A program made the position numbers and the translations under genes. Shown here piece after piece: positions 1 to 30,872 of a stretch of DNA of 34,924 bases (positions are counted from its first letter, which is position 1; the number at the start of each line of letters is the position of its first letter). The notes below the pieces were generated by a model, which worked only from the letters and a program-made list of their open reading frames with translations, searched no databases and was not told where the DNA came from. The stretch lies in IMG/VR virus record IMGVR_UViG_2896589216_000002; one strand, 5' to 3'. The DNA is from a virus. Taxonomy: Duplodnaviria > Heunggongvirae > Uroviricota > Caudoviricetes.

Positions 1-381
1 ATGCAGAAAAATGTGAATCCCGGCAGGCGAAAAGGCTGCCCTAATTATCCTCCCGAATTTAAACAGCAGCTCGTTGCTGCCTCCTGTGAACCCGGGATAT
101 CCATCTCAAAACTTGCTCTTGAAAATGGCATTAACGCCAATCTGTTGTTCAAATGGCGACAACAATGGCGCGAGGGAAAGCTGCTATTACCTTCTTCAGA
201 GAGCCCCCAGCTACTTCCTGTGACTCTCGATGCAGCTGCCGAACAGCCAGAATCGCTCGCAGAGGATCCGGAAACCCTCAGTATCAGCTGTGAGGTAACG
301 TTCCGGCACGGGACGCTCCGCTTTAATGGCAATGTCAGCGAAAAGCTCCTGACTCTGCTGATACAGGAACTGAAGCGATGA
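1..381 (+). CDS. tnpA: IS66-family accessory protein TnpA (OrfA), first ~7 codons cut by window edge
   Basis: Identical to the 133-aa ORFs at 19886-20287 and 28328-28729 (which start MGTKVSDMQKNVN). Confidence 0.85.
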   Translation: MQKNVNPGRRKGCPNYPPEFKQQLVAASCEPGISISKLALENGINANLLFKWRQQWREGKLLLPSSESPQLLPVTLDAAAEQPESLAEDPETLSISCEVTFRHGTLRFNGNVSEKLLTLLIQELKR

Positions 382-725
382 TCCCGTTACCTTCCGGGAC
401 CAAAATTTGGCTGGTTGCCGGTATCACCGATATGAGAAATGGCTTCAACGGCCTGGCGGCAAAGGTGCAGACGACGCTGAAAGACGATCCGATGTCAGGT
501 CACGTTTTTATCTTCCGTGGGCGTAATGGCAGTCAGGTAAAGCTCCTCTGGTCTACCGGCGATGGACTGTGTCTGCTGACCAAACGGCTGGAGCGCGGCC
601 GCTTCGCCTGGCCGTCAGCCCGGGATGGCAAAGTGTTCCTCACACCGGCACAGCTGGCGATGCTCCTTGAAGGTATCGACTGGCGGCAGCCTAAAAGACT
701 GCTTACGTCCCTGACTATGTTGTAA
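378..725 (+). CDS. tnpB: IS66-family TnpB (OrfB), 115 aa
   Basis: ATGA overlap with tnpA; conserved IS66 OrfB-type sequence; three identical copies in window. Confidence 0.85.
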   Translation: MIPLPSGTKIWLVAGITDMRNGFNGLAAKVQTTLKDDPMSGHVFIFRGRNGSQVKLLWSTGDGLCLLTKRLERGRFAWPSARDGKVFLTPAQLAMLLEGIDWRQPKRLLTSLTML

Positions 726-773
726 GCCTCTTTATCCTGGTCGACGCTGAATGAGCCTGGTAATATACCCGGT

Positions 774-2312
774 ATGAGCAGCTCACTTCCTGACGATATC
801 AATGCACTGAAACGTCTCCTTGCCGAACAGGAGGCGCTGAACCGTGCCCTGCTGGAAAAGCTGAACGAGCGTGAACGCGAAATAGACCATCTGCAGGCAC
901 AGCTGGATAAGCTGCGCCGGATGAACTTCGGCAGCCGCTCCGAAAAAGTCTCCCGTCGTATCGCACAGATGGAAGCTGACCTGAAGGCACTTCAGAAAGA
1001 AAGTGATACCCTTACCGGTCGGGTTGACGACCCGGCCGTGCAGCGCCCGCTGCGTCAAACCCGCACCCGCAAACCGTTCCCCGAATCACTCCCCCGCGAT
1101 GAAAAACGGCTGCTGCCGGCAGCGTCATGCTGCCCGGAATGTGGAGGCTCACTGAGCTATCCGGGTGAGGATGCCGCCGAACAGCTGGAGTTGATGCGCA
1201 GCGTCTTCCGGGTTATCCGGACTGTACGTGAAAAGCATGCCTGTACTCAGTGCGATGCCATCGTGCAGGCCCCCGCGCCTTCACGGCCCATCGAGCGGGG
1301 TATCGCAGGACCGGGGCTGCTGGCCCGCGTGCTGATCTCAAAGTATGCAGAGCACACCCCGCTGTACCGCCAGTCTGAAATGTACGGCCGCCAGGGCGTG
1401 GAGCTGAGTCGTTCACTGCTGTCGGGCTGGGTGGATGCATGCTGCCGGCTACTGTCACCGCTGGAAGAAGCGCTTCAGGACTATGTGCTGACTGACGGTA
1501 AGCTCCATGCTGATGACACGCCTGTCCCGGTGCTGTTGCCAGGCAATAAGAAAACGAAGACCGGGCGGTTATGGACCTACGTTCGTGACGACCGTAACGC
1601 CGGGTCAACGCTGGCGCCGGCGGTGTGGTTCGCTTACAGCCCGGACAGAAAAGGCATCCATCCGCAGACCCATCTTGCGGGGTTCAGTGGTGTACTGCAG
1701 GCGGATGCATACGCCGGGTTCAACGAGCTGTACCGGGATGGCCGGATAACGGAAGCCGCCTGTTGGGCTCACGCCCGCCGTAAAATCCACGATGTGCACG
1801 TTCGCACCCCGTCAGCCCTGACGGAGGAAGCGCTGAAACGGATCGGCGAACTGTACGCCATCGAGGCAGAGATAAGGGGAATGACGGCGGAGCAGCGCCT
1901 TGCCGAACGTCAGTTGAAAACGAAACCGCTGCTGAAATCCCTGGAAAGCTGGCTGCGTGAAAAGATGAAAACCCTGTCGCGACACTCAGAACTGGCGAAA
2001 GCGTTCGCATACGCCCTGAACCAGTGGCCGGCGCTGACGTACTATGCAGATGATGGCTGGGCTGAGGCGGACAATAACATCGCTGAAAATGCGTTGCGGA
2101 TGGTCAGTCTGGGCCGCAAAAACTACCTGTTCTTCGGTTCGGATCATGGAGGAGAGCGGGGAGCGCTGCTGTACAGCCTGATCGGGACGTGCAAACTGAA
2201 CGGAGTGGAGCCAGAAAGCTACCTCCGCTATGTCCTTGACGTCATAGCCGACTGGCCGATAAACCGGGTCGGCGAACTGCTCCCCTGGCGCGTAGCACTG
2301 CCGACTGAATAA
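774..2312 (+). CDS. tnpC: IS66-family transposase TnpC, 512 aa
   Basis: Long ORF with Cys-rich zinc-finger-like region (CCPECG...CTQC); identical to copy 3. Confidence 0.9.
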
Positions 2313-2345
2313 CACATCCCCGTCAATACGGTTCTTGCTGCACGC

Positions 2346-2705
2346 TTACGATTTTGCCAGCATGACTACCGGGGACAGGCGGCCCAGTGAGTCGGGACCA
2401 GCATTCCAGATACGACCGTTCCATTCAAACGTGAACGGCTTCGCCTCCTGTTCTGCGCGCCATGCTTCAATTTCCTGACGTCTGGCCTCTCTGGCCGCTT
2501 CCTGCATTTCTGGTGTCACAGTGAATGGGGCTATCTCACCCCATTTGCCGCTTTGCAGTTCCTGCCAGATTTGCTGACCCGTCGGAGCGACATCATCAGC
2601 GGTGGCTGTGTAGGGGACTGCCTGGTCCCTGTCGTCAAAAAAAACGTCACAGTCTACTGCGCCACTTTCGGTATAACGGGGATTAATGATTTTTTTAGTT
2701 TCCAC
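2346..2705 (-). pseudogene. tail fiber assembly protein (Tfa-like), GTG start at 2705; 3' end abuts IS66 and stop codon lies inside the IS terminus
   Basis: RBS gagga upstream of GTG (VETKKIINPRY...); last sense codon 2349-2351 and stop 2346-2348 straddle the IS66 end. Confidence 0.5.
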
Positions 2706-2715
2706 GGTGCATTCC

Positions 2716-3069
2716 TCACGATGTGCGAATAAAAAGCCCGGGCATTGCGCCAGAGACATGTGCATCCGGCACCCCGGACAGGGCGCAATATGACCCCGGT
2801 AATGAATGCTCTGAACATCCCGTAATGAAAAATTGTGGGGATGCTATATACGTTCCGGTGGGAGTACTGGGCACTGAAATCCCCACCGGTCCCAGTCGTG
2901 AGCCTCTGTATGACTGCCCCCTGACAAGTCTGATGACTTTATCACCGTCAGCTTCTCCCTGGTACGCAGCAATAATCAGCCCGCCAATGTCAGGGGCTCC
3001 CCATCTGTTGCGGACAGAGCTCGCCACGATTCTGTAAATAATATCTTCTGTGGTTATATTTATTTTCAC
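2716..3069 (-). CDS. hypothetical protein, 117 aa, between side tail fiber and tfa
   Basis: ATGA-coupled to upstream fiber ORF; no recognisable family; could be a displaced fiber C-terminal domain. Confidence 0.35.
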   Translation of the reverse strand: MKINITTEDIIYRIVASSVRNRWGAPDIGGLIIAAYQGEADGDKVIRLVRGQSYRGSRLGPVGISVPSTPTGTYIASPQFFITGCSEHSLPGSYCALSGVPDAHVSGAMPGLFIRTS

Positions 3070-4124
3070 CCAGTCAGTCTGGATATGGGCCAGTAGCAGT
3101 AGCGGGTGTGATAAATGGGGCCGTTAATGCCGTAAAAAGTAAGGGATTTGGCTCTGTACCGCGGTTCTGTTGTCTCAGGGCGTGCATCAGTCCACCGGAT
3201 GCTGAGCACCCCTTCAAACCGTGTGTCGGGTATGATGCCCAGGCGGCCAGCAACGGAATACTCACCTGGCAGCGCATTCCTTACCCAGGCCAGGAAATCA
3301 CTCTTAGTGTCAAAACGGATAACATCTTCAGGCAGAAAAGCACACCCAAAGCCGAATGCGCCGGGTATCGCCAGACGGCCTTTTGTCCGGTCGTAAATGT
3401 CGCTCTGTGCTTCCATCGTGGCCGCACTTTTCAGCCCCAGATTATCCCGGGACTTCTGTTGTGCCTTTTCGCCTGCTGCTGCGATTTCTGACAGATGGTT
3501 AGCCATTTTCAGAGTGCCGGTAAGCGCAGCATCAATGTCATTTTTGGCCTGTTCTGCTGCGCGGGCATAACCTGCGGCATCCTGTGCGCTCTGTCCGGCT
3601 GCGGCTGCATTTGCTCCTGTGCTTGTCACATCTTCCGCAGTGGCCTTTCTGTCCTCAGCTGTGACGGTTGCATCCTGTCTGGCATTCTCCGCAAAACGTT
3701 GTGCATCATCACGGGCCGTTGCGGCTGCCGCCACATCCTGCGCCGTCTGCTGTGCGTTTCCGGCTGCGGCCCCGGCGCTCTGCTGCGCCTGCACCACCAT
3801 TTCCTCAAAGCGTTTGACGACATCCGGTTTCAGGTCGCCCTCATCAGGAGCAATCAGAAAGTCATTCAGCGTGCCGGGCTTTGAGTCCTCATATACAGCA
3901 ATGTCGCCAACGTTGTACTCGTTGTGCCAGCCCGGTTTCAGATACACACCATATTTTCCAGTCCGCGCATGGAAACAGTATTCACCATCGTTTCCTGTCA
4001 TCACATCAGCAACAGTGTGCATCACCACTTCCGGGGTGTTTACCCGGGATTTCAGAATAATATGGTATCCGGACATGGGGATACCTGCGCCATCAGTCAG
4101 CGCACCTGATATCACTACAGACAT
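3066..4124 (-). CDS. stf: side tail fiber protein with lambda Stf-like N-terminal domain and Ala/Gln-rich shaft, 352 aa
   Basis: N-terminus (ISGALTDGAG...VYEDSKPGTLNDFL) parallels lambda Stf N-domain (VYEDSQPGTLNDFL). Confidence 0.7.
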   Translation of the reverse strand: MSVVISGALTDGAGIPMSGYHIILKSRVNTPEVVMHTVADVMTGNDGEYCFHARTGKYGVYLKPGWHNEYNVGDIAVYEDSKPGTLNDFLIAPDEGDLKPDVVKRFEEMVVQAQQSAGAAAGNAQQTAQDVAAAATARDDAQRFAENARQDATVTAEDRKATAEDVTSTGANAAAAGQSAQDAAGYARAAEQAKNDIDAALTGTLKMANHLSEIAAAGEKAQQKSRDNLGLKSAATMEAQSDIYDRTKGRLAIPGAFGFGCAFLPEDVIRFDTKSDFLAWVRNALPGEYSVAGRLGIIPDTRFEGVLSIRWTDARPETTEPRYRAKSLTFYGINGPIYHTRYCYWPISRLTG

Positions 4125-4476
4125 AGTTTTTCTCGCGATAAATTAAATCAGGAAGAAATTTCCGGAGAGGCGGGCCATTCAATGGCGTTGTATGAGGTTT
4201 TATCAGTGATGACACTGAAATCCATCGCCTGCAGCGATTTCGCGTAAATGCGGTACGCTTTCAGTTTTTCCCGGTCTTCGTCGCTGATTAGCCCCAGCAG
4301 CAGGTCTTCTTCCCATTCCCCTGTCCGGGCACTGACCTGAGCCAGAAGGGCATCACGCTCATCTTCCGCTTTGAGTCTGTAGTCAAAGACAAATTCATCA
4401 TTGCGGTAAAACCAGTAACCCGGCGCGGTAATGCGGCGGTTGGCGGTAATATCAGGAACTTGGTAATGACTCCAAC

Positions 4477-4980
4477 TTACTGATAGTGTTTTATGTTCAG
4501 ATAATGCCCGATGACCTTGTCATGCAGCTCCACCGATTTTGAGAACGACAGTGACTTCCGTCCCAGCCTTGCCAGATGTTGTCTCAGATTCAGATTATGT
4601 CGCTCAATGCGCTGAGTGTAACGCTTGCTGATAACGTGCAGCTTTCCCTTCAGGCGTGATTCATACAGCGGCCAGCCATCCGTCATCCATACCACGACCT
4701 CAAAGGCCGACAGCAGGCTCAGAAGACGCTCCAGTGTGGCCAGAGTGCGTTCACCGAAGACGTGCGCCACAACCGTCCTCCGTATCCTGTCATACGCGTA
4801 AAACAGCCAGCGCTGACGTGATTTAGCACCGACGTAGCCCCACTGTTCGTCCATTTCAGCGCAGACAATCACATCACTGCCCGGTTGTATGCGCGAGGTT
4901 ACCGACTGCGGCCTGAGTTTTTTAAGTGACGTAAAACCGTGTTGAGGCCAACGCCCATAATGCGTGCACTGGCGCGACAT
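4477..4980 (-). CDS. insB: IS1 InsB
   Basis: Canonical IS1 InsB sequence. Confidence 0.9.
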
Positions 4981-5174
4981 CCGACGCCATTCATGGCCAT
5001 ATCAATGATTTTCTGGTGCGTACCGGGCTGAGAGGCGGTGTAAGTGAACTGTAGTTGCCATGTTTTACGGCAATGAGAGCAGAGATAGCGCTGATGTCCG
5101 GCAGTGCTTTTGCCGTTACGCACCACGCCTTCAGTAGCGGAGCAGGAAGGACATCTGATGGAAATGGAAGCCAC
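4899..5174 (-). CDS. insA: IS1 InsA
   Basis: Canonical 91-aa InsA with CxxC zinc finger. Confidence 0.9.
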
Positions 5175-5472
5175 GCAAGCACCTTAAAATCACCATCATA
5201 CACTAAATCAGTAAGTTGGCAGCATTACCCAGGAACTTCAATAACACTGGCGTTACGGGGTTCAATGCCTGTCACATCCTTACCGACCCACACCACGCGA
5301 CCGTCTCCGGTGTAAGTTATTTTAATTGTGTCGCTGGCGAAATTCTTCAGCTCTTCATACCAGTTTTTTCCGTCTTCCGAAAAAAGCCAGGTGACATCAT
5401 ATTGTTTTGTCAGCTGATATTGTTCCACGGTTTTCGGATTGCCCGCAGTAATATTTTTTAAATGCAACATTG

Positions 5473-6858
5473 TTAAACACTCGCCACGTTATACCAGGTG
5501 CCATTAATCAGTTTCTGAAGCGGGCGGTAATACACGCCGTTGACGTTATCCGCTGAGTCACGGCCGGTATCCGATATCGCTATCCCTGACAGCCCGTGTC
5601 CCGAAGGTGCGCGAAATCTCCACGAAACGGTGTTACTGCCGGGGCTGTAATACATTTCATGGCCATACCGTACATCCTGTACCCCCTCTGTTCGATATTT
5701 ATAGCGGGCATCGAAGTTTCCGTAATTTAACGGAATTACCTGTCCGTTTACGGCGAACGTGATGCTGTTATCTGTATTCCTCTGGCTGAAAAAATGCCAG
5801 CCTGAATCATCGCCAAGCTCTGCAACAACAGACCTGGATGGATTACCCCACAAATAAAACGCTGCATTTTTCGTGGAGTTGTTGGCGCTGGATAACGTGA
5901 ATTTTCTGGCAGTTCCGGCCTGAATATTCTTAAAAGCAATAGCCACTCCATTCTGAAAGCGGAATACACGCTGACTATTAGCATAAACATCCAGAATACC
6001 GTCTCCATTCTGTTTAAATCCGGTGTCATTATCACCAAGAACAATTGAATTCCCCCCCAGGGCGTTCTGAACGCCGATACCCAGCGCACCATTGACCTGC
6101 GAACCACCGCCAACAGACACTTTATGCGACATGGATATTTCACCCGTCCGCAAATTAATGGTGAACGGGCGCAGGGGACCAATATCGCCATTTTCCCCCT
6201 GACCTTCACTGGTGGGAATAAGGTGCAGGCACTCTTCCGAACGACGAAAAATCAGGCCAAAAGCTTCGTTGAAAATCCTCAGCGCATTAACACCACGGAT
6301 TTTCAGCTCTCCGGTTATTTTATCGCCTTCCCGATGAACATAGCGTTGATCTGACTGCTCTTTACTGTAAACCTGAAGATTATCCCGTGCCGTCCCTTTA
6401 TTCTGAAGGTCTGACAGATTGTTCTTCTGCCGCAGGAATATCCTTTTCGGATCCTCAAGAAGATTTACCCAGCCCGCACTGTCGGAGCCTTCAGGATCGG
6501 TCAGGTTATCGTCTGTGGTATTCAGCCAGACCGCTGTTGTTGCGACTCCGGCGAGAATGGCTCCTTTTGCATATCCACCAATGGCCCCCGCAAAACCGGC
6601 ATTATACGTGTACAAACCGCCAGCTTGGGCGAACCGTATTGCTGCGGTAATATCGTACATCAGACCGTTAAAATCCTTGCAGTGTGGCGGTATACCTCCC
6701 GCTGAGACCGCTGTCATGGTCACCGGAGGAAAACCTGAATCATACGCAGCATTACCGCTCTCTCTGGTCTGCTGTGTCGCCTTGTCCGGGATACGGTTTT
6801 TATCTCCGGTACTCGCAAAGGGGACCGCCAGCTGGCGGGGTTTATCACTGGCCTTCAT
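5473..6858 (-). CDS. phage tail fiber protein, 461 aa
   Basis: Sits between baseplate genes and tfa; stop directly abuts tfa start. Confidence 0.6.
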
Positions 6859-7261
6859 TACGGGACTCCTTTAAAACTACTGAAACATAAACACCCGGCG
6901 GGGACGGCAGTGCACCCGACGACTGGATAATCGCCAGTTCTGCCAACGAGAGCGCGGACTCAAAGATGTAACTCATCCTCAGCCCACCATTATTCAGAAC
7001 ATAAGCCCGCCGTTTTTTTCCGAACATAAATCTCAGCATCCGGTTAATATCCGGAACGGAACAGTCAGTAATGTTCGACATGGCTTTCATCAGTATCAGC
7101 CGCCGGTATACAGCATCAGACAGGTCAACAGTCCGGGTATCCGATTTTCCGTTGTAAAACGGTGCCTGATTAGACTGGCCCCCTGAATCTCCAGACAACC
7201 AGTATCACTTAAATAAGTGATAGTCTTAATACTAGTTTTTAGACTAGTCATTGGAGTACAG

Positions 7262-7627
7262 ATGATTGATGTCTTAGGGCCGGAGAAACGCAGACGGCGT
7301 ACCACACAGGAAAAGATCGCAATTGTTCAGCAGAGCTTTGAACCGGGGATGACGGTCTCCCTCGTTGCCCGGCAACATGGTGTAGCAGCCAGCCAGTTAT
7401 TTCTCTGGCGTAAGCAATACCAGGAAGGAAGTCTTACTGCTGTGGCCGCCGGAGAACAGGTTGTTCCTGCCTCTGAACTTGCTGCCGCCATGAAGCAGAT
7501 TAAAGAACTCCAGCGCCTGCTCGGCAAGAAAACGATGGAAAATGAACTCCTCAAAGAAGCCGTTGAATATGGACGGGCAAAAAAGTGGATAGCGCACGCG
7601 CCCTTATTGCCCGGGGATGGGGAGTAA
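7262..7627 (+). CDS. insC: IS2 InsC (OrfA)
   Basis: Starts [16 protein letters not shown] protein. Confidence 0.9.
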
Positions 7628-8490
7628 GCTTAGTCAGCCGTTGTCTCCGGGTGTCGCGTGCGCAGTTGCACGTCATTCTCAGACGAACCGATGACTGGAT
7701 GGATGGCCGCCGCAGTCGTCACACTGATGATACGGATGTGCTTCTCCGTATACACCATGTTATCGGAGAGCTGCCCACGTATGGTTATCGTCGGGTATGG
7801 GCGCTGCTTCGCAGACAGGCAGAACTTGATGGTATGCCTGCGATCAATGCCAAACGTGTTTACCGGATCATGCGCCAGAATGCGCTGTTGCTTGAGCGAA
7901 AACCTGCTGTACCGCCATCGAAACGGGCACATACAGGCAGAGTGGCCGTGAAAGAAAGCAATCAGCGATGGTGCTCTGACGGGTTCGAGTTCTGCTGTGA
8001 TAACGGAGAGAGACTGCGTGTCACGTTCGCGCTGGACTGCTGTGATCGTGAGGCACTGCACTGGGCGGTGACTACCGGCGGCTTCAACAGTGAAACAGTA
8101 CAGGACGTCATGCTGGGAGCGGTGGAACGCCGCTTCGGCAACGATCTTCCGTCGTCTCCAGTGGAGTGGCTGACGGATAATGGTTCATGCTACCGGGCTA
8201 ATGAAACACGCCAGTTCGCCCGGATGTTGGGACTTGAACCGAAGAACACGGCGGTGCGGAGTCCGGAGAGTAACGGAATAGCAGAGAGCTTCGTGAAAAC
8301 GATAAAGCGTGACTACATAAGTATCATGCCCAAACCAGACGGGTTAACGGCAGCAAAGAACCTTGCAGAGGCGTTCGAGCATTATAACGAATGGCATCCG
8401 CATAGTGCGCTGGGTTATCGCTCGCCACGGGAATATCTGCGGCAGCGGGCTTGTAATGGGTTAAGTGATAACAGATGTCTGGAAATATAG
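7585..8490 (+). CDS. insD: IS2 InsD (OrfB transposase)
   Basis: 301-aa DDE ORF overlapping insC in -1 frame. Confidence 0.9.
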
Positions 8491-8787
8491 GGGCAAATCC
8501 ACTGATTAAACGGACAGGGATCATCCATTACCGGGGTGTCCATCCTGGACTCGCTGAAGCCCAGGTAATTAAAATCGTCCTTTACCGTCAGCCGGCGACT
8601 GACACCCACAATCTTTCCCCAGACATCAAGACCATACTTTTCTGCGGTATCGATGTTCCAGATAAGACCATAAAAATCACTGATAAAACTGTCGGGGGAA
8701 AGCGCTGCGTTAAAGCTGTTAATGAGGGCATTGAGTCGGGGGCTGGCAGCATACTGCGCAAGCACAGTGGCAGCCACATTCTGCACG

Positions 8788-10025
8788 TTATGCCTCCTGG
8801 AGTTTCACACTGATATCCGACACATCCAGAACCGGAATCTCATCTATCCCGAAAGTGACAGCCGTTGTCCATGACGAACCGTCACGGCTCACAGTAAGGC
8901 CCAGAATATCAATATGTTCCGGATCGGTTTTGTAAATGCCGGCATAGTAGCGCCCGGCAGAGACAACAGAGGCAACCCTTGCCCGCAGACCACCATCTGT
9001 ACCATTAAATGCGTCCAGCACGGATTGCTGTACCTGTCGGGTAATATCTGAAGGCAGGTAGTCACTTTTTTTCAGCGTCACACTGACATGCAGACTGACG
9101 GGTTTGAGTGTCTGCCAGCTGATTACGTATTCAGGATACGGCGGATCGTACTCCTTATCTGCAACAGTGAACGTTGTGTTGCCATTCATATCAATACCCG
9201 GCGGAGCCTTACGCCAGATGGCCGCCGCGATATCTGCCGGGCTGCCGCCGTACACGCCAACATAAAGCGAACCGGGTGTTAATGGATACTGACTGACTCC
9301 GGCTTTTTGTTCTGTTTTTTTCGGATTATGGGGGACGTAAACATCCACCACGTTTTCTACCGTGGAGAGTATTTCACCCCGGATGGCTTCCAGAATATTC
9401 CGGGCATTACGGGCAACTGAATTACGTCGGCGGTTTTCAAAGTCCGCACGGGTTTCCTCATCGCTGCCCGGCACACCGGCACGGGCGTTAGTGACACCTG
9501 ACCAGCCAGGTATTGCCTTATAAATTTTATTCAGCGTCCCCACAGGACAGCCGACGGGGCCGGTGGACAAATTCAGAAATACCGCATCAACCTGCCCTGA
9601 TGCGCCGATAGTGACGTCTGACTGACATACTTATAACCGGCCTCATCCTGCCCCATACTGCCCGCCGGGATCAGCGTGCCAACCAGCCCGGTACAGGTCG
9701 CTGTTACTGTCGTACCTGTGGCCCCACGGCGCTCCAGGAAATAAATCCTGCCTATTGCATCCTGAAAGCGACCACTGGAAAAGTCAGGGTTGATCTGGTT
9801 AACGATATACAGCAACTGATCGTTTTTATCCGCAATAATGGCGCTTTCGCTGGATGCAAGTTGTCCCTGCGGACTGCTCAGACTGGTACTCATGGCCCCG
9901 CCCAGCGCCGCCGAAAAATCAGCAAGCCTGCCGCTCAGAATATCCGCTTCATCCGGCACATTCAGCCCGCTATCCGAAATCTGTACAGCGGGCACTGCGG
10001 TAGAAAAAGATTTATTTTCACTCAT
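8788..10025 (-). pseudogene. baseplate J-like protein split by an apparent 1-nt frameshift near 9615-9635
   Basis: 150-aa N-terminal ORF (9573-10025) and 260-aa ORF (8788-9570); the second frame reads ...SDVTIGASGQVDAVFLN... straight after the first stops. Confidence 0.6.
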
Positions 10026-10378
10026 AGCAGTACCGTAAAAATGTCATTATTGGTATCTGTAATACGCAGCACACCTGTTACTGTCCGGGTTTGATCAGCT
10101 GTGACCTGGCAGACAGCGGCGCTCACGGTCGGCAGTTTAAGTGCTTCCTGTTGCAGAGTGGCATTCACCAGTTGTGTGCCGGGCCAGTGTCCGAGGATGC
10201 GTGGCCAGTAAGGTATGCCAGCCGTTGAGTCGTACCAGCACTCCCCCAGAAAAGTACTGCACGCACACGCCACATCCTGAGCTACCGCATGGGGATTATC
10301 AGTAATGGCAAGATTTCCGGTATCATCAAGCAGGATATCCCATGTCCCGGTGTCAAGAAGAAGTGATCGTGACTGCAT
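10022..10378 (-). CDS. baseplate wedge protein (gpW / gp25-like), 118 aa
   Basis: Size and position between V-like and J-like genes. Confidence 0.5.
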   Translation of the reverse strand: MQSRSLLLDTGTWDILLDDTGNLAITDNPHAVAQDVACACSTFLGECWYDSTAGIPYWPRILGHWPGTQLVNATLQQEALKLPTVSAAVCQVTADQTRTVTGVLRITDTNNDIFTVLL

Positions 10379-10390
10379 GTTTTCTCCTGT

Positions 10391-11068
10391 TTACCGGGAT
10401 CCCTGCGTGGTTGAGCCGCCGGACTCAACGCCGCCGTGAACGTGGTTTCCAAAATCAATACCCCCGATGTTCGAACCGCCGGAAAGCCTGGACTGCCCGG
10501 TAACGTCAAGCCCCTTACTGACGGCGGTATCGCCGTTCAGCGCAATTTGTGGTGAGTTAACGGTGAAGCTTTTCGGCGCATTAATCACCCCCTCAGGCGC
10601 GGATATCTCCACTTTCCAGGGAGATACAATCCGTATCTGGTTGTCATCAAATACCACAAACTGGACGGGATCACCGTTGAGCACGCCACCCAGCCAGATG
10701 GCATCAGCATAATTATGGGTACGCTTTGATCCCGGCATCGCAGCCTGACGCGTGGCTTTTACCGCACTGATATCCCGATCGCAGATGGCAAGAAAACCGA
10801 TATCCCCCACATGTGGCGGGATAATCACCGCATTACCGCCCCCCTGTAGTCGCCATACGGGAATGTTATAAATCACCTCATGTTCAACCGGGGAACCGTC
10901 TGCTGCAACGCCCATTACCATCGGTCGGGCCTCAATAAATCCCTCTTCCACGGCTACCACCCGTCCCAGAGTGATAAACGCATGACGTCCGAGAAACTGC
11001 CGCAGCATAAAGTCCTGTGCATTGATTTCGCTGTTCACGTCTGTCGGGTTACTGAGTGGTTGTGCCAT
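10391..11068 (-). CDS. baseplate spike / assembly protein V-like (Mu gp45-like), 225 aa
   Basis: C-terminal GNHVHGG motif; position upstream of W/J. Confidence 0.6.
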   Translation of the reverse strand: MAQPLSNPTDVNSEINAQDFMLRQFLGRHAFITLGRVVAVEEGFIEARPMVMGVAADGSPVEHEVIYNIPVWRLQGGGNAVIIPPHVGDIGFLAICDRDISAVKATRQAAMPGSKRTHNYADAIWLGGVLNGDPVQFVVFDDNQIRIVSPWKVEISAPEGVINAPKSFTVNSPQIALNGDTAVSKGLDVTGQSRLSGGSNIGGIDFGNHVHGGVESGGSTTQGSR

Positions 11069-11918
11069 TTTCTTCAGCCCTCATCATGGTACAGTTGGAA
11101 CTCCACGGACCGCCCACGGTTCGCGAAGTAATGGTGTGTATCACCCCTGTGATCGTATAATCGCCCGTCATATCAGGCAGTGACGATTCCAGATGCGCTG
11201 GCCTGCCAGTAAAGAGATCGGGGCAGAATATCGTGGTGGCGCTGAGTCCGGTCATGGTGTAAACCGGATAGCCAGTCAGTCCGTGATCCGGCGAAATCAG
11301 TACCGGCGGAATATTCCGGTTCTGCCCTTTCGGCCAGATGGTGACTTTCTCCACATTCCCCAGATCAATGTTAATATCGGCGGCTGAAGCGACATCCAGC
11401 ATTTGTTGTACAACATTACCGGAAAAATGCGGGTCAGACAGACTGCGGCTGACCCCCTGGTTTTCAAATCCAAGCCCGACAGTTGACGCCAGCGCACGGA
11501 TAATATCTGCAACCGCAACATCGCCCTTTGCGCTGAAATCTGCCGCCGGCTGATTACGCAGATTAAAATGAATCTGTCCTGTCAGAATGAGCGGAATATC
11601 CGGCGCCTGGTTGTAGTCGGCGTATGCATCAGTAATATCACCTTCAAAAATAAGCCGCCCGTCGGCCCACAGCCGCATTTTATTTGCGGTACTCTGCTCC
11701 TGTCGCCACACACCGCGCCAGCTTAAATTCGTCATATGCGCCGGTGACATTCCCCAGATATACAGCGTGATTTGTGTACCAGCCACCCCTCCATATACGG
11801 CAATACTGGCAAAACAGCTTGCGTCGGTAATGGTCAGCATATTGCCCTGGCCATTACCAAACGTTCGTCCGTCTGAAAGAGTGAACTCCACCGTTATTTT
11901 ACGTTGTCTGTAGCTCAT
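11049..11918 (-). CDS. phage tail protein, possible baseplate hub, 289 aa
   Basis: Position between tape measure and baseplate genes. Confidence 0.4.
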
Positions 11919-12217
11919 ATCAGTTCCTCAGGTAACAGCCAGTAGAGCCGGTACCGGGATCCGAGCCCCCGCCAGTCAGGGTCACTATTCCCCTCCGTGT
12001 CGGTAAAAAACAGATCCCCCTGAAACGGCAGGTATCCGTACCGGACAATCCGGTTATTATTCAGACACAGCACGCCATACAGGCACGGTTCACCATTAAC
12101 AATGATATCGATATACATCCCCGTAGTACGCTGATTCAGGCGAATGGTGCAGACCTGAGCGCCCAGTGTCACCGTAAACTGCTGGGCTTTAACGGGAGAT
12201 AAAACAATTTCCAGCAT
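11915..12217 (-). CDS. phage tail protein, 100 aa
   Basis: Translationally coupled within tail operon. Confidence 0.35.
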
Positions 12218-12927
12218 CAGGTGATCCCCCTGTTCGTGGCGCTTCGTCTGTCAGCGTCTGACGGTTGTGTCTCCGACGCCGTAACTGGCTGCGTTTTAAC
12301 CGATGCGGCCCCTTTTGCTTTATCGTTGTCCGTGGGAGACGACTTATCCGTACTTCCCACTGACACCTCTCCTGTATTCATTACGGTCTGAAATACCGCA
12401 GTAACCGTCAGTAAGGTCGGACCATTATTACTTCGCATTCGGTAGTCATATTTCACAAGGTCGCAGGATGTCCATGTCTTGTCCGGCGTCTCAATATCGT
12501 AGAGTCCTGCCGTGGTACGCATCCTTTCAAGCGTTTCCAGCACATTCGTCCGCGAGGTGGTGGAAAAATTTGTCAGGTTCGGGACGGATCCGGAAAAGGC
12601 CGTCCACCCCTCTACAGTGAAAGTCACATGCAGTTCCGGCGATCTCTGGATTTTATTAAAGGTGGTATAAGCCCCCTGCTCCACGGGGACGGTGGAAACA
12701 GAAGCCTCCGCGCCCACCTCAACGACAACAAAAGAATCCGGGGAGAAAGGTTTGCCACCCTTCTGATGGGCACCTGCCGGATCATTCCGTGCGTAATAAA
12801 TACCGAATGACGGTGCCAGTACACTATTAATGAGTCCCAGGACACAGCCGCCACGAACTGCACTCAGTACGTTACTTTCACTGAGCGAAAAGTTATTCAG
12901 GGAAATATTATCGAAAGAAAAACTCAT
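12217..12927 (-). CDS. phage tail protein, 236 aa, directly downstream of tape measure
   Basis: Operon position; overlapping stop/start. Confidence 0.4.
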
Positions 12928-14944
12928 CCTGTTACCCCGCTGGAATAAACCGACACAAGCGCCGAATTCGTGATACGCCGACGTGCGTCATCGGTAATAC
13001 CCTTCACATTGTCCGACGTTGTGGTGACATTCAGTGTCCCGATATGCGTGGTTTCCGTTACGGTGGACTGCGATACAGGCGCAGGATGGAGCGACCGTAT
13101 GGCCATTGCCGCACCCGGATAAGGCAGGTTCGCCAGCACCCGCGGAATATAGTTGCGGGTCTCCTCCGGAGCAGCAGCCAGTCCCTTACGCTGAACATTT
13201 CCCTCTCCACAGTTATATGCCGCCAGAGCCTTAGCCAGATCGCCATGAAAAAAACGTATCAGGCCACCAAGTTTTCTCGCGGCGGCATCAGCGGCTTTTT
13301 CGGGATCAAAGGCATCGTTCCCCCTCAGACCAAATTCACTGGCCGTCTTCGGCATGAACTGAAACAGTCCCATCGCACCAGCAGGTGAGACGGCAAACTG
13401 ATTACCACGGGATTCGGTGATCGCAACGCTGCGCAGCAGTCCGGGCGGCAGGTTATATTTTTCCTCCAGTTGAGACAGTTTCGGTTGCAGCCAGCCTAAC
13501 AGGGCTTCCCCGGTCTTCGTCGGTCGCTGGCGGTTTTGCATGGCATTACCGAGTTTTTCCTGCGTCGCACGCATACCCTGTAGCCAGGATTCACCGAAGG
13601 CTGCTTCCCTCCCGGTTGCCTGAGAAGCCTGAGTATCCAGCATGCCCTGCTGCCATACTGTGGGTGATTGTGCCCGGGTGATGTTGCCAGGCTTTTCTCC
13701 GGCATCCAGTTTTGTCTGATACGTCTCCATCTCTTTCTTATTGAAAAAGAAAGTCCCGTCTGAAGCCCAGAAAAAACCATGTGAATCCAGCCAGTCCTTA
13801 TTTTCCCTGCCAACAATGGATGTCAGTAATCCGTCAACAACCGGGTAAAGCGCCGTTATCGCAAAAAGAAGGCCTCCGGGGCCACTGAGGGCTTTTGTCA
13901 GCCCCCGCACCCATGACGCCACTTTCAGCCCGATCAGCGTAATAATGACATTCTGCCAGCCCCCCAGTTCTCCGGCAGCCTTATTCGCTAGGGAGGCCAC
14001 TGACTCAACGTCATTCAGAAATGTGGTGATAAACCTGTTCACTTCCTCCGGATGTTGCTGCATCCAGTCACCGAGTGTCTCCAGCCAGTGGCTGAGCTTC
14101 AGCGCGTACGGCATCAACGCGGTGCTAATCGTCATCCCGATGCCGGACCAGGTCTGATCGAGCTCAACAAGCTCTTTTCGTAGCTTACGGGCCAGCGCTG
14201 TACGCCCCGGCGTAACCTGCGAACGGGAAGTAAATTCGTCCACATCTTTCAGCGCATGACCGGAGCCAAGAAACTGCTGTCCGGCATAACTGAAGCCCAG
14301 CGCGTTGCCGTAGGCAGTTTGTTCGGACTTTGTCAGTCGCGGAAAAATAACCGCCAGCTTGCGCATGATGGCTTCAGTGCTGTCAGTATTTAAATCAACA
14401 CTAATGCCCGCCCTGGCTGCAACCTGAAACAAATCCTGTAACACAGGATCAAAGGACCTTCCGGCTCTGAAGGCCGCTTTTGCATTTGCAAGCCGGGAAA
14501 ATGCCCCAGACATTTCCCCTTCATCAACATTATTTGCCCGCGCAGCCCGTAACCATCCGTCCAGATTTCTGGCCTTCATGCCAAAAGCATCGGATTCCAC
14601 GGACAGACGGTTCAGATCACGGGCAAAACCTGTTACCAGGTTCTTCAGCCCCCCAGCGTCAGACTGACACCCGCAAGAGCCAGAATCTCGCTACGGATTC
14701 CTGAAAAAAAACGGGACGCCCGTTTCCCGGCATCTTCCATTCGACGGGCCGTTTTATCAGCATCTTTTCCGGTTTTTTCCAGTGATTCACTGGTTTTCTT
14801 CTGTCCCTGACTGAATGTGTCAGCGACACCTTCCATCACCGTCGTGAGCCGGTTAAGGGCAGCATGTACTGCCTGTTCCCCGGCAGTAAAGTCCCTGTCA
14901 TCAATCCCGAGGGACAGAACAAGCTCATCAAGTACCTGCGCCAT
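12924..14944 (-). CDS. tail tape measure protein with C-terminal lytic transglycosylase (SLT) domain; N-terminal 99 aa and main 558 aa separated by a frameshift in a C6 tract
   Basis: SLT motif (ITESRGNQFAVSPAGAMGLFQFMP...AYNCGEGNV); adding one G to the run at 14649-14654 fuses the frames as ...SLTLGGLKNLVTGFARDLNRLSVESDAF... Confidence 0.7.
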
Positions 14945-16591: not shown

Positions 16592-17955
16592 GTTGGAGTC
16601 ATTACCGACAGTTTACCGTCAATACCGCGGGCAGTTTCCGCCAGTACCAGTGGATCGGTGCCATAAACGTTATCTGTTGCAAATCCCTGAAGTCGTACGC
16701 CGGAGGGATACAGATTATTCACTGTCAGCGTGATAATGGCATCCGCCGCAGTGATGGTGTTGTTGTTACCCGACATTTACTGGACCTCCGTGGATGCAAT
16801 AACAAGTTTCTGGATACTACCGCCGTCACAGTACCAGAGCGTACAGGACGGACTGCTACGGGTTGCCCGCAAAGAGGGAAGCATATCGCCGATATACAGG
16901 TAATAGCCGGTGGCAAACAACGTTGAAGAAACATCTGCCTCCACAACATTGTTAATCTGTTTCTTCTGCGCCTCCGTCAGTGTCACCCCTTCACGGATCC
17001 CTCCCAGCGTTTGTACTGCTGGATAACGTCACTCATTGACGCTGCAACCAGCGCCCGCCCTTCATTGTTGTAGGGGACCGTCTGGTTTGACTTGAATAAT
17101 GCGATCACCGCCCCTGCAAACTGGCATTCAGCCAGATTTGCCCGCAGAAACTGTCCAGCCATTTAAAATCACCGGTAATAGTGCCATCCGCCCAGTAATC
17201 TTCCACCACACTGTTTTCCGCATATTTTCCGTAGAAATTGTAACCTGCGGCGATCAGCGCATCATAATCGCTGCCACTGGTAACATCAGCGGCCAGCCCC
17301 TCATACTCGCGGAACTTGAATGATACACGCCCCTCTGGTCGGATAAAATCAAGGCACGCTGCATACCCCAGTACCGCTGCAGCCCGGTTACCATCAGTCG
17401 CGAAAACAGGTACAACAGAGCTGTAGTTATTGACAGCAATTATCTGGTAAGCGATGTGTTCAGTACTGCCTTTTACTCTGGCGTTGCCGCTGGTTGTCCA
17501 TGCCACATAAAAGTAACGCTTGCCCTGCCCGTTTGCCCATGCAGAAAACGCCAGGTGTTGCTCGTCAGTGACCTCAGATACCGTGGAAAAACCCGCCCAT
17601 TGCTGGGAAGCGGCCTTAATGGCTGCCATTGTGTCAGGGACATCAGATACAGGCGCGCCCCGGGATATCACCGCACCGGTGTTACTGGTCATCTTCAGGA
17701 GTTCTGCTGCCGATCCACTGCCGAACGTTATCGTGGTACTCCCGGGTTTCGCCCCGGCGACAGTAATGACAAAAGCATTCTGTGTGGTATCGAATACCAC
17801 TGTAGCCACTGCTGCGGTCAGCGCTGTCTGTAGTGCCGTTGCAGCAGCGGCGAAGCTGGCGACACCGTTAAAATTCACTTCAATGCTGACGCTTTTCCCG
17901 TTAATACTCAGCATCAGCGTAAGCGTGCAGCAAGAACCGTATTGACGGGGATGTG

Positions 17956-19493
17956 TTATTCAGTCGGCAGTGCTACGCGCCAGGGGAGCAGTTCGCCGAC
18001 CCGGTTTATCGGCCAGTCGGCTATGACGTCAAGTACATAGCGGAGGTAGCTTTCTGGCTCCACTCCGTTCAGTTTGCACGTCCCGATCAGGCTGTACAGC
18101 AGCGCTCCCCGCTCTCCTCCATGATCCGAACCGAAGAACAGGTAGTTTTTGCGGCCCAGACTGACCATCCGCAACGCATTTTCAGCGATGTTATTGTCCG
18201 CCTCAGCCCAGCCATCATCTGCATAGTACGTCAGCGCCGGCCACTGGTTCAGGGCGTATGCGAACGCTTTCGCCAGTTCTGAGTGTCGCGACAGGGTTTT
18301 CATCTTTTCACGCAGCCAGCTTTCCAGGGATTTCATCAGCGGTTTCGTTTTCAACTGACGTTCGGCAAGGCGCTGCTCCGCCGTCATTCCCCTTATCTCT
18401 GCCTCGATGGCGTACAGTTCGCCGATCCGTTTCAGCGCTTCCTCCGTCAGGGCTGACGGGGTGCGAACGTGCACATCGTGGATTTTACGGCGGGCGTGAG
18501 CCCAACAGGCGGCTTCCGTTATCCGGCCATCCCGGTACAGCTCGTTGAACCCGGCGTATGCATCCGCCTGCAGTACACCACTGAACCACGCAAGATGGGT
18601 CTGCGGATGGATGCCTTTTCTGTCCGGGCTGTAAGCGAACCACACCGCCGGCGCCAGCGTTGACCCGGCGTTACGGTCGTCACGAACGTAGGTCCATAAC
18701 CGCCCGGTCTTCGTTTTCTTATTGCCTGGCAACAGCACCGGGACAGGCGTGTCATCGCATGGAGCTTACCGTCAGTCAGCACATAGTCCTGAAGCGCTTC
18801 TTCCAGCGGTGACAGTAGCCGGCAGCATGCATCCACCCAGCCCGACAGCAGTGAACGACTCAGCTCCACGCCCTGGCGGCCGTACATTTCAGACTGGCGG
18901 TACAGCGGGGTGTGCTCTGCATACTTTGAGATCAGCACGCGGGCCAGCAGCCCCGGTCCTGCGATACCCCGCTCGATGGGCCGTGAAGGCGCGGGGGCCT
19001 GCACGATGGCATTGCACTGAGTACAGGCATGCTTTTCACGTACAGTCCGGATAACCCGGAAGACGCTGCGCATCAACTCCAGCTGTTCGGCGGCATCCTC
19101 ACCCGGATAGCTCAGTGAGCCTCCACATTCCGGGCAGCATGACGCTGCCGGCAGCAGCCGTTTTTCATCGCGGGGGAGTGATTCGGGGAACGGTTTGCGG
19201 GTGCGGGTTTGACGCAGCGGGCGCTGCACGGCCGGGTCGTCAACCCGACCGGTAAGGGTATCACTTTCTTTCTGAAGTGCCTTCAGGTCAGCTTCCATCT
19301 GTGCGATACGACGGGAGACTTTTTCGGAGCGGCTGCCGAAGTTCATCCGGCGCAGCTTATCCAGCTGTGCCTGCAGATGGTCTATTTCGCGTTCACGCTC
19401 GTTCAGCTTTTCCAGCAGGGCACGGTTCAGCGCCTCCTGTTCGGCAAGGAGACGTTTCAGTGCATTGATATCGTCAGGAAGTGAGCTGCTCAT
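17956..19493 (-). pseudogene. tnpC: IS66 tnpC with 1-nt deletion (copy 2)
   Basis: gtcatcgcatgg near 18755-18760 versus gtcatcagcatgg in copy 3; ORF splits into 324 + 260 aa. Confidence 0.85.
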
Positions 19494-19541
19494 ACCGGGT
19501 ATATTACCAGGCTCATTCAGCGTCGACCAGGATAAAGAGGC

Positions 19542-19889
19542 TTACAACATAGTCAGGGACGTAAGCAGTCTTTTAGGCTGCCGCCAGTCGATACCTTCAA
19601 GGAGCATCGCCAGCTGTGCCGGTGTGAGGAACACTTTGCCATCCCGGGCTGACGGCCAGGCGAAGCGGCCGCGCTCCAGCCGTTTGGTCAGCAGACACAG
19701 TCCATCGCCGGTAGACCAGAGGAGCTTTACCTGACTGCCATTACGCCCACGGAAGATAAAAACGTGACCTGACATCGGATCGTCTTTCAGCGTCGTCTGC
19801 ACCTTTGCCGCCAGGCCGTTGAAGCCATTTCTCATATCGGTGATACCGGCAACCAGCCAAATTTTGGTCCCGGAAGGTAACGGGATCAT
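19542..19889 (-). CDS. tnpB: IS66 TnpB (copy 2)
   Basis: Identical to copies 1 and 3. Confidence 0.85.
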   Translation of the reverse strand: MIPLPSGTKIWLVAGITDMRNGFNGLAAKVQTTLKDDPMSGHVFIFRGRNGSQVKLLWSTGDGLCLLTKRLERGRFAWPSARDGKVFLTPAQLAMLLEGIDWRQPKRLLTSLTML

Positions 19890-20287
19890 CGCTTCAGTTC
19901 CTGTATCAGCAGAGTCAGGAGCTTTTCGCTGACATTGCCATTAAAGCGGAGCGTCCCGTGCCGGAACGTTACCTCACAGCTGATACTGAGGGTTTCCGGA
20001 TCCTCTGCGAGCGATTCTGGCTGTTCGGCAGCTGCATCGAGAGTCACAGGAAGTAGCTGGGGGCTCTCTGAAGAAGGTAATAGCAGCTTTCCCTCGCGCC
20101 ATTGTTGTCGCCATTTGAACAACAGATTGGCGTTAATGCCATTTTCAAGAGCAAGTTTTGAGATGGATATCCCGGGTTCACAGGAGGCAGCAACGAGCTG
20201 CTGTTTAAATTCGGGAGGATAATTAGGGCAGCCTTTTCGCCTGCCGGGATTCACATTTTTCTGCATATCTGACACTTTGGTTCCCAC
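19886..20287 (-). CDS. tnpA: IS66 TnpA (copy 2)
   Basis: 133-aa full-length. Confidence 0.85.
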   Translation of the reverse strand: MGTKVSDMQKNVNPGRRKGCPNYPPEFKQQLVAASCEPGISISKLALENGINANLLFKWRQQWREGKLLLPSSESPQLLPVTLDAAAEQPESLAEDPETLSISCEVTFRHGTLRFNGNVSEKLLTLLIQELKR

Positions 20288-20687
20288 TACTTATTTGGTG
20301 GACACCACTTTGTCTAATTCGTCAGATTCTGACCAGACGGTTCAGGCTGTACGCTTACGCATCAGCGTGCCGGAAAGTTTTTGTAGCTGTTCAACAGTCG
20401 CGCCCTTAAACGAACCGCTACGTAACCAGGCCGCCGATGGGGCAGGACTGAAACGGGAAAACAACAATTGCCCCGGCGTCCTGGTGGCATTTTTGAAGCC
20501 CTGGAAATAAAGCTGAGCGCGTGCGTACTCATCGGATAATGCACCAAAATACGCGGCCACATCATCCGGAGAGGAAAACGGAACCACAGTGCCGACCGGA
20601 AGTAACGGATTACTGGTCAACAGCAGGCCGTTAAGATCGACGGCATTACCCGCCACAGCCAGCACACCGGGATTTATCTGTACATCT

Positions 20688-21233
20688 TTACTGAGTGGAA
20701 TTGGCATTATCAGCCTCCGTTGTCCGGGTGATCACGTTGTCAAAAAACATCAGGGAAGTTGTGACCACAGGGTTAATCTGCATCTGAATATCAAGCGTCC
20801 AGCGCGGTTCATACTGTTGCTGACCGTTGGGGAATGTGGTGTTAAAGGGCTCTGAGCAATACAGCGGGGAAATCAGCCCACCGCCCTGCCGGAAAAGCCG
20901 TACGGAAAATTCAGACCGGAAAAGCGTTGCCAGCACCTGAGCGTTATCTGCCGCGTGAGGGCCGTAGAAATCAAGCTGGCAACGCCATTTTGTGGTACGG
21001 GTGATATGCTGAGAGCCCTCACCAGCCTGCGCTGGCGCAGAATATGCCACTACCGCAGTGGATAATCCGGTAACATCAATGCCCGTCATGGTGATGAAAT
21101 TCCCCTGAGGCATCGGGACCTGGTTCTGCTGCGTTCGTTCAATCCCGGCATCAGAAAAAAGCCCCCGGTGATAATCACCGAGGGCCTGATAAAGAGCGCT
21201 TTCCGTAACGGAGAGGGTCACACCTGAAGGCAT
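20688..21233 (-). CDS. phage virion protein immediately upstream of sheath, 181 aa
   Basis: Tight operon; position of tail terminator/completion proteins. Confidence 0.4.
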   Translation of the reverse strand: MPSGVTLSVTESALYQALGDYHRGLFSDAGIERTQQNQVPMPQGNFITMTGIDVTGLSTAVVAYSAPAQAGEGSQHITRTTKWRCQLDFYGPHAADNAQVLATLFRSEFSVRLFRQGGGLISPLYCSEPFNTTFPNGQQQYEPRWTLDIQMQINPVVTTSLMFFDNVITRTTEADNANSTQ

Positions 21234-21583
21234 ACAATAACCCTCGTCCAGTCAGGCCAGATTTCCAGTACCTCAATCACCAGCCACGTTTCATCGCCAA
21301 TAACAAATTTATCGCCTCCCTGTTGCCGGGCACGGTTAAGCCCGCACCAGTTACCATCGGTATACAATGTGGCGAAAACTCCCTGCTGGTTAAGATTATC
21401 AAGATGACGTAAATCAGCCTGGGTGACAGCCTGCTTTTGCCCCCTGACGGAAACCGGATCTTCATACTCAGGTACGCGGGAATAATCTGCCTGCTGTGTA
21501 CTCCCGCGGGAACGATAAACCAGCGCGTCTGTAAAGGGATTTACCCGACGTACTGCGCCGGAAACAATACCGTGAAAGTTCAT
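21218..21583 (-). CDS. phage head-tail joining protein, 121 aa
   Basis: Overlapping coupled ORF in structural operon. Confidence 0.4.
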   Translation of the reverse strand: MNFHGIVSGAVRRVNPFTDALVYRSRGSTQQADYSRVPEYEDPVSVRGQKQAVTQADLRHLDNLNQQGVFATLYTDGNWCGLNRARQQGGDKFVIGDETWLVIEVLEIWPDWTRVIVCLQV

Positions 21584-24593: not shown

Positions 24594-25894
<1,301 letters not shown>

Positions 25895-26232
25895 CTGATA
25901 AAAGCGCCCTGTACTGGTTAGCAATAGCAAATTTACTACCAGCTGCTCTGATTTCAAGAAAGCTGTACACCTCCCTTATGCCTATATTTTTAACCGGAAC
26001 ACCACCAAAGTATTCACTTATGATTTTCAACCTCTGGTTGTGTCTTTTCATGGTGTTTGTGCTTAATTGTCTACGCTCTATTTCATTTCTGAAATTTAAT
26101 ATCAGCTCGCAGAATAATGTTACGCTATTACCTTTTATTCTATCCAGTAAGCTTATATGTTGCGTGGATAATAATTCCATATTTGCCGCAATAGCCTCAT
26201 TAACTGCAATTCTTTTGTCTCTTCCGATTCCA
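25895..26232 (-). pseudogene. AT-rich integrase-like fragment (N-terminal/SAM-like region), cut by IS1 upstream and IS911 downstream
   Basis: Frame ...RDKRIAVNEAIAANMELLSTQHISLLDRIK...LSTNTMKRHNQRLKIISEYFGGVPVKNIGIREVYSFLE...; low-GC codons. Confidence 0.35.
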
Positions 26233-30866: not shown

Positions 30867-30872
30867 AGGTGC

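Follow-up and report, generated by a model that had tools for sequence, protein, structure and literature searches.

The side tail fibre of phage lambda, Stf, is a protein of 774 aa with a gp37-like distal region, and is chaperoned by the Caudo_TAP protein Tfa. In the lambda particle a collar of twelve StfN domains on gpV/gpM bears four trimeric fibres (PMC12617516), and in phage XM1 a domain of the StfN kind anchors trimers at the neck (PMC10457771). A further group of fibre assembly factors is typified by a DUF4376 domain. V22 gp27, A5 gp9 and the partner of the CJIE1 H-fibre are proteins of 195-239 aa with a C-terminal DUF4376, which are encoded immediately 3' of the fibre gene, and experiments show that fibre function depends on them (PMC7289586, PMC10579305, PMC7882524); those of Alteromonas phage V22 (PMC7289586, PMC10579305) and of the Campylobacter CJIE1 prophage (PMC7882524) are required fibre chaperones.

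Both kinds of assembly factor are found together in a four-gene cassette at the prophage end in phiP27 (L54-L57; AJ298298) and Rac-SA53 (tail1-tail4; KU052037). This comprises, in order, a fibre lacking PF08400, a Caudo_TAP protein, a fibre with PF08400 (490 aa in phiP27 and 1061 aa in Rac-SA53) and a DUF4376 protein of 187-188 aa, and is an established, already annotated arrangement. The same four-gene order and Pfam domains are present in the stretch of viral DNA analysed here (the window; 34,924 nucleotides), but the phiP27 and Rac-SA53 copies are intact, whereas that of the window carries three inactivating lesions (Table 1). We consider it highly probable (roughly 0.93) that positions 2346-4124 of the window hold the decayed distal part of a cassette for host recognition, which belongs to a defective prophage of the contractile-tail type. 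The sequence of CP026832.1 is 100% identical to window positions 1-14124 and the exact-match proteins are named in the database as those of Shigella dysenteriae, which, as judged from these matches, is evidently the host of the prophage.

Table 1. Features at the left end of the window
Feature	Positions	Strand	Basis or remark
IS66-family element, right-hand 2349 bp of ~2442 bp	1-2349	+	ORFs, Pfam, two further copies
tnpA	1-381	+	IS66
tnpB	378-725	+	IS66
tnpC	774-2312	+	IS66
139-aa ORF	2346-2765	-	listed ORF overlapping the truncated DUF4376-type gene
DUF4376-type tail-fibre chaperone gene, 119 of 187 codons (5' two-thirds)	2349-2705	-	PF14301, PHROG 1141, intact homologues
117-aa ORF	2716-3069	-	3' part of split fibre 2
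Fibre 2 pseudogene, 470 aa once repaired	2716-4124	-	DNA alignment, repair, Pfam, PHROG, homologues
352-aa ORF	3066-4124	-	5' part of split fibre 2
Frameshift site, (ACTG)2	3071-3078	-	three-way DNA alignment
tfa 3' part	4148-4461	-	positions 233-546 of the E. coli O121 tfa align to window 4461-4148 (blast)
IS1, 768 bp, inside tfa	4462-5229		end sequences, 9-nt overlap of tfa blast segments
tfa 5' part, 80 codons	5230-5470	-	99.6% identity to positions 1-241 of the E. coli O121 tfa
Fibre 1, 461 aa, baseplate-type tail fibre	5473-6858	-	follows the DUF2612 wedge gene

The second tail fibre gene and its frameshift

A previous, sequence-only reading of this region had described three ORFs of 352, 117 and 139 aa, all of which are present on the minus strand, and had taken them for three separate genes: a naturally short Stf-like protein devoid of a receptor-binding domain, a 117-aa gene in its own right and a lambda-type tfa cut short by IS66. 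The first of these assignments is sound in its N-terminal part, with residues 1-131 (~3732-4124) recovering PF08400, the 'Prophage tail fibre N-terminal' domain, with a score of 225 bits against a cutoff of 26.6 (E 3.4e-67). The 117-aa ORF possesses a GTG start of its own that overlaps the upstream stop, and the last gene is truly clipped by IS66, both of which are in keeping with three genes. However, in all homologues a single continuous protein runs across both of the upstream ORFs. Searches recovered 1240 homologues of this fibre (hereafter fibre 2) at E<=1e-10, the full-length members of which have 421-475 aa, and intact alleles in this size range are common among E. coli and Shigella. 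In an alignment of 25 sequences the end of the 352-aa protein and the start of the 117-aa protein fall in adjacent columns of continuous homologues. Similarly, the 117-aa ORF, which had been described as an orphan, matches the C-terminal positions 456-567 of 568 in PHROG 2636 (E 4.8e-45) and abuts the 352-aa ORF exactly in every homologue, while no exact record of it as a stand-alone protein is present among ~15 billion sequences.

The point of breakage was located by a three-way DNA alignment of the window with the corresponding loci of E. coli RMDEC465 and E. coli O121. In the former, fibre 2 is a single 470-aa 'prophage tail fiber N-terminal domain-containing protein' (WP_490185896.1), and in the latter it is a protein of 421 aa (WP_115333404.1) in which 49 aa of the shaft are missing. 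The window is one base out of frame relative to both of them at a single spot, where its minus strand reads CCAG ACTG ACTG GGTG; the O121 locus reads ACTG ACTG GCTG GGTG and the RMDEC465 locus has a differing local sequence with one extra base. Intact alleles of the type ACTGACTGACTG encode a protein with ...SRLTDWVKIN..., and those of the type ACTGACTGGCTG one with ...SRLTGWVKIN.... Alleles of the 'TDW' form, such as that of the intact E. coli protein P0244 (470 aa), would correspond at the DNA level to ACTG ACTG ACTG GGTG, as reasoned from their protein sequence. Thus, the 352-aa and 117-aa ORFs are the halves of a single tail-fibre gene of ~470 aa, which was broken through the loss of one 4-bp ACTG unit at 3071-3078. 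The loss brings a TGA (3068-3066) into frame and leaves the remainder of the gene in the -1 frame, so that the uninterrupted frame through the distal (receptor-binding) domain that is seen in intact members is absent from the window copy.

Insertion of 4 bp at the break in silico opens 470 codons, and the product aligns without a gap to P0244 at 91% identity; P0244 and the 352-aa protein also fall in the same 90% cluster. The repaired protein matches PHROG 2636 with an E-value of 3.3e-219 (best stretch, residues 180-469 against positions 270-567 of 568) and conforms to the family from end to end, including its C-terminal ...GLFIR(T/I)x. The frame is open across the ACTG site in the alleles of RMDEC465, O121 and P0244, which share 94-99% DNA identity with window positions 2350-4461 and keep the order tfa - fibre 2 - DUF4376; a megablast search of complete E. 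coli genomes likewise found the homology to intact prophages to span 2350 to 4461. Four assemblies, of which two are complete genomes, encode the identical 352-aa protein, and the frameshifted allele is therefore not a sequencing error. The window copy of fibre 2 is a pseudogene of the PF08400 family.

The architecture of the fibre was approached through AlphaFold2 modelling of P0003 (467 aa), an intact homologue that is 98% identical to the 352-aa part of the window protein except in its first ~95 residues, where it has a different PF08400 subtype; the fold match for the N-domain is therefore indirect for the window copy. The model predicts a beta-sandwich N-domain, long helices over residues 99-225 and one confident globular region at 255-467 (pLDDT ~80-90). 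The order of elements in the repaired fibre 2 is accordingly a PF08400 collar or anchor domain, an alanine-rich helical shaft and, from about residue 255, a globular distal domain of ~210 aa. The break, near residue 349, lies inside this globular region, and since the frameshift falls within the distal domain there is no receptor-binding domain missing from the gene, contrary to what had been proposed: both the alignment and the P0003 model point to a complete predicted distal domain once the gene is repaired. Nor is the modest length of the fibre as compared to lambda Stf a mark of truncation, because the family is naturally of 421-475 aa.

A profile of fibre 2 run against the PDB recovered matches to the N-domain alone, namely lambda StfN and XM1 gp40, and this sequence search of the PDB found no solved analogue of the distal domain. 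The distal domain of phiP27 L56 aligns with that of the window fibre over its full length at ~30% identity, whereas the distal parts of the neck or collar fibres of Vibrio phage XM1 (gp40) and cyanophage A-1(L) (gp82), and of the tail collar fibre gp4 of Bxb1, are unrelated to it. In comparison with the Stf/Tfa pair of Ur-lambda, fibre 2 differs in its size of ~470 aa, in being paired by position with a DUF4376 protein and in having a distal domain with no match in the PDB.

In light of the coincidence of the break with the deletion of a 4-bp repeat unit, the placement of the 117-aa part inside a single predicted globular domain and the membership of the last gene in DUF4376 rather than PF02413 (see below), it is very improbable that three separate genes are present here; the orphan status of the 117-aa ORF and the missing receptor-binding domain are refuted outright by the DNA alignment, the repair and the gapless match to P0244. 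The earlier reading had itself named matches of the 117-aa ORF and the downstream fragment to intact genes as a finding that would speak against it. Both do match larger intact genes, but each corresponds to a part of such a gene and not to a complete one.

The position of the lesion in a tetranucleotide tandem repeat, of which alleles with two units (the window) and three units (the P0244 type) are known, might alternatively indicate a regulatory device, in which slipped-strand changes in (ACTG)n or programmed -1 frameshifting would switch the full-length fibre 2 on and off and thereby make host range phase-variable. Several observations render this very improbable. Repeat tracts of two or three units are much too short for slippage at appreciable rates of the kind seen at contingency loci. 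The other type of intact allele carries ACTGACTGGCTG, which shows that the repeat is not conserved and argues against regulation through it. No slippery heptamer of the form X XXY YYZ was found at the overlap of the two ORFs, and the two-unit allele is seen solely in this Shigella lineage, in the four assemblies, where the adjacent tfa, chaperone, sheath and wedge genes have been destroyed by IS elements. Low-level ribosomal -1 slippage that would restore some full-length fibre 2 is likewise improbable in view of the lack of a slippery heptamer, and the chaperone and tfa genes are broken in any case.

The DUF4376 gene and the IS66 junction

The ORF of 139 aa had been labelled tfa-like. Neither this ORF (2346-2765) nor its intact homologue matches PF02413 (Caudo_TAP), and it is hence not a lambda-type tfa; instead it belongs with DUF4376. 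The underlying guess of a fibre assembly factor was reasonable, given that DUF4376 chaperones are experimentally required elsewhere. The listed ORF over-extends the gene upstream by 20 codons. The likely start is the GTG at 2705-2703, which is preceded by a GAGGAA Shine-Dalgarno sequence and lies 10 nt beyond the stop of fibre 2 (2716). Intact homologues of 187-188 aa start at the equivalent of the window VETKK, beginning with M(Q/E/N)IK(K/E)I.... Profile analysis with PF14301 (DUF4376) scored the window fragment at 23.1 bits over profile positions 1-40 of 106, which falls short of the cutoff of 25 owing to the loss of the remaining domain to IS66; the intact homologue from RMDEC465 scored 59.3 bits with this profile and matched PHROG 1141 with an E-value of 3.2e-87. 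The window gene is thus a truncated member of the family. Its location directly downstream of the fibre gene is shared with the RMDEC465 and O121 loci, phiP27 and Rac-SA53. With V22 gp27, A5 gp9 and the CJIE1 partner the family has in common a DUF4376 domain at the C-terminus, a comparable size and the position immediately 3' of the fibre gene, but the kinship is at the level of the domain only and the window gene keeps just the first ~40 of the 106 domain positions. A sequence search of the PDB with the DUF4376 protein returned nothing below E 0.1. This gene position, taken together with the experiments on distant DUF4376 proteins, suggests that the product was the dedicated chaperone of fibre 2.

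The ends of the IS66 element were defined with the aid of two further complete copies, lying at 17919-20358 and 26360-28800 of the window, and the first copy runs ~93-96 bp past the left window edge. The terminal inverted repeat common to all three copies, GTAAGCG on the minus strand, starts at 2349, and homology to the intact loci ends at 2350. The minus-strand junction reads ...GCA AAA TC|G TAA GCG..., in which IS66 provides the third base of the last chaperone codon, TCG, as well as the whole of the stop TAA (2348-2346). This upholds the earlier claims that the stop lies inside the IS66 terminus and that the element truncates the accessory gene, the cut falling after codon 119 of 187. The exact junction between IS66 and the DUF4376 gene had no match in GTDB species representatives. 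In the O121 locus the chaperone gene is likewise interrupted, but by a different IS66-family element lying ~150 nt further in than that of the window, whereas in RMDEC465 it is complete and followed by ipaH.

The second IS66 copy is bounded by a perfect 8-bp target duplication, GCATCAGC. The first copy has its genes and terminal repeats, but its flanks, GCAAAATC and AGTTAAGT, differ and there is no 8-bp target-site duplication. In CP026832.1 the DNA beyond IS66 contains zitB within ~30 bp, followed by pnuC, nadA and the tolB-pal region. The lack of a target duplication and the presence of chromosomal zitB directly after the element indicate a deletion or rearrangement and not a simple insertion. 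The 3'-terminal ~205 nt of the intact gene, which include GATGCCGATAATCAGCAGGTGAAACTG, are absent from both the 34.9-kb window and the 7 kb beyond IS66, where blastn with a word size of 7 gave chance-level matches of at most 27 nt; the displaced 3' end that had been anticipated beyond the left edge is thus not found within that distance. It is also conceivable, albeit rather unlikely, that IS66 entered the DUF4376 gene by simple insertion and that the 3' end was moved elsewhere in the genome by later recombination between IS66 copies, instead of being deleted. The missing target duplication of the first copy and the occurrence of three near-identical copies, able to recombine, in the window alone are consistent with such a course. 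However, neither the window nor the adjoining 7 kb contains the 3' end, and an exchange of flanks between the first and third copies is rejected, with the flanks of the latter (GTCTCAGA and GTTTTTAT) pairing with neither of the former. As the DUF4376 gene is non-functional in either outcome, this alternative concerns the history of the lesion only.

Fibre 1, its interrupted tfa and the prophage setting

The fibre 2 and DUF4376 genes had been placed directly after a first fibre-tfa pair, but the tfa of that pair is itself split by IS1, and it is the 3' part of it that adjoins the 352-aa ORF upstream. The intact tfa encodes a lambda-type Caudo_TAP protein of 181 aa (an intact homologue matches PF02413 with E 1.1e-25) that belongs with fibre 1. 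A 9-bp target duplication, CAGGAACTT, is present at 4453-4461 and 5230-5238, and the IS1 is a simple insertion. Fibre 1 lacks PF08400, and over its last 207 aa it shares 92% identity with the C-terminus of a lambdoid Stf-like fibre of 813 aa from E. coli RMDEC465.

The surrounding prophage is of the contractile-tail type with E217/Pam3-type tail genes, encoding a neck terminator, an E217 gp28-like collar protein, a DUF3383 sheath, an SLT tape measure, a sheath initiator and a DUF2612 wedge. Further IS lesions affect this region, with the sheath gene split by IS66 and the wedge gene by IS2. In a megablast search of the phage collection the neighbouring structural genes gave only matches to IS2 and IS1. 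The Stx2e phage phiP27 is likewise contractile-tailed (sheath gene L44), but a tblastn search of it with the window tail proteins recovered the middle of fibre 1 as the sole match, which implies that the prophage backbone is not phiP27-like.

The block from ~6056, within fibre 1, through the DUF4376 gene shows 92-99% DNA identity to E. coli cassettes. In RMDEC465 the setting is a lambdoid one, unlike that of the window, with the order J-lom-stf-tfa-fibre 2-DUF4376-ipaH, and the block shared with the window ends at the IS66 junction. Its sharing with a lambdoid prophage implies that the cassette has been exchanged between unrelated tail types, and the mosaicism suspected earlier is borne out in this form. 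The comparison with intact cassettes that had been suggested as a check has thereby yielded counterparts in RMDEC465, O121, phiP27 and Rac-SA53.

The ancestral cassette and its intact relatives

The intact cassette comprises fibre 1, its Caudo_TAP assembly protein, a fibre 2 of ~470 aa and a DUF4376 protein of 187 aa, the putative chaperone of fibre 2. The Stf-type collar domain of fibre 2 would dock the trimer on the virion, with the distal domain of ~210 aa predicted to bind the receptor. Three independent lesions, namely IS1 in tfa, the ACTG loss in fibre 2 and IS66 in the chaperone gene, have inactivated the cassette in the window, the last of them replacing the final 68 chaperone codons and most of the DUF4376 domain alongside a deletion or rearrangement. 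Probably nothing functional is made from the cassette today.

A more tentative possibility is that the fibre-1 tip, tfa, the PF08400 fibre and the DUF4376 chaperone constitute a portable auxiliary-fibre unit that recombines between unrelated tail types. The block accompanies an E217/Pam3-type contractile tail in the window prophage, a different contractile tail in phiP27 and a lambdoid siphovirus tail in RMDEC465. A generic collar domain might allow the second fibre to attach to the tail-tip collar of siphoviruses and to the neck of myoviruses. The copy in the window would then be no more than a dead example of such a unit.

Thus, in conclusion, the three ORFs of this region should be annotated as two pseudogenes, one for a frameshifted PF08400 tail fibre and the other for an IS66-truncated DUF4376 chaperone. 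The region reflects the ordinary decay of genes in a Shigella prophage riddled with IS elements, and it has little significance past its correct annotation, being another case of the decay of Shigella prophages driven by IS elements and slippage. The wider interest lies with the intact relatives, in which a Stf-type second fibre and a DUF4376 chaperone travel with the fibre-1 tip between siphovirus-type and myovirus-type prophages. This co-travel of the fibre tip and the second fibre could help in the engineering of fibre swaps.

Length and N-domain variation of the fibre

The alleles of fibre 2, the PF08400 tail-fibre pseudogene, display a length polymorphism in their Ala-rich shaft (window 3579-3719 vs L002, the E. 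coli O121 locus), with 147 nt (49 aa) of the shaft being present in the window and in E. coli RMDEC465 and missing from the O121 allele. Other homologues, in proteins of 575-766 aa, possess much longer shafts. In the alignment of fibre 2 homologues (A1), three clearly distinct PF08400 N-domain subtypes, with the N-termini MSVVISGAL..., MAVKISGVL... and MPQLKGVIK..., occur on fibres that are nearly identical to one another in the shaft and the distal domain (P0002, P0003, P0009, P0024 and P0028). This combination indicates that in these fibres the anchoring domain has been swapped, in addition to the tip.

Insertions in the chaperone gene and elsewhere

The intact DUF4376 chaperone gene of E. 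coli RMDEC465 is closely followed downstream by ipaHd, which encodes a T3SS effector (L001 3862-5613). In E. coli O121 the DUF4376 gene is interrupted by another IS66-family element, ~150 nt further in than the IS66 of the window (L002 3239-5818), and sitABCD adjoins this element and gene; this is a second, independent IS66-family event in the gene.

The IS66 copy in the sheath gene (see table) differs from the copy at 1-2349 in being a simple insertion, as shown by the 8-bp target sequence, GCATCAGC, which is perfectly duplicated at its two ends. Separately, nested mobile elements occupy window 26233-29600, in the order IS1 fragment, third IS66 copy and a further IS66-family tnpA/tnpB pair, and leftovers of the prophage regulatory region lie at 30077-32101.

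Neighboring features of the prophage in window coordinates
Feature	Position	Remark
DUF2612 (Phage_Wedge1) baseplate wedge gene fragments	6845-7198 and 8415-8786	
IS2	~7171-8501	inserted in DUF2612 gene
DUF3383 tail-sheath gene fragments	17105-17914 and 20342-20707	
IS66, second full copy	17919-20358	within DUF3383 gene
E217 gp28-like collar protein gene	21218-21583	weak similarity, E 2.7e-06, 28 bits vs cutoff 27
IS3-family element	24594-25858	adjoins mobile-element cluster
Lambda-type integrase fragment	25803-26246	adjoins mobile-element cluster
IS1 fragment, 127 bp	within 26233-29600	mobile-element cluster
IS66, third copy	26360-28800	no target duplication
Second IS66-family tnpA/tnpB pair	28827-29593	differs from third IS66 copy
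Rha/Ash-family protein	30077-30901	regulatory-region remnant
cI-like HTH repressor	31694-32101	regulatory-region remnant

A candidate docking partner

The gene resembling that for gp28, the collar protein of the contractile-tailed phage E217, is adjoined by the neck terminator gene. If the ancestral phage carried a PF08400 fibre at its neck, the fibre could have docked on the product of this gp28-like gene.
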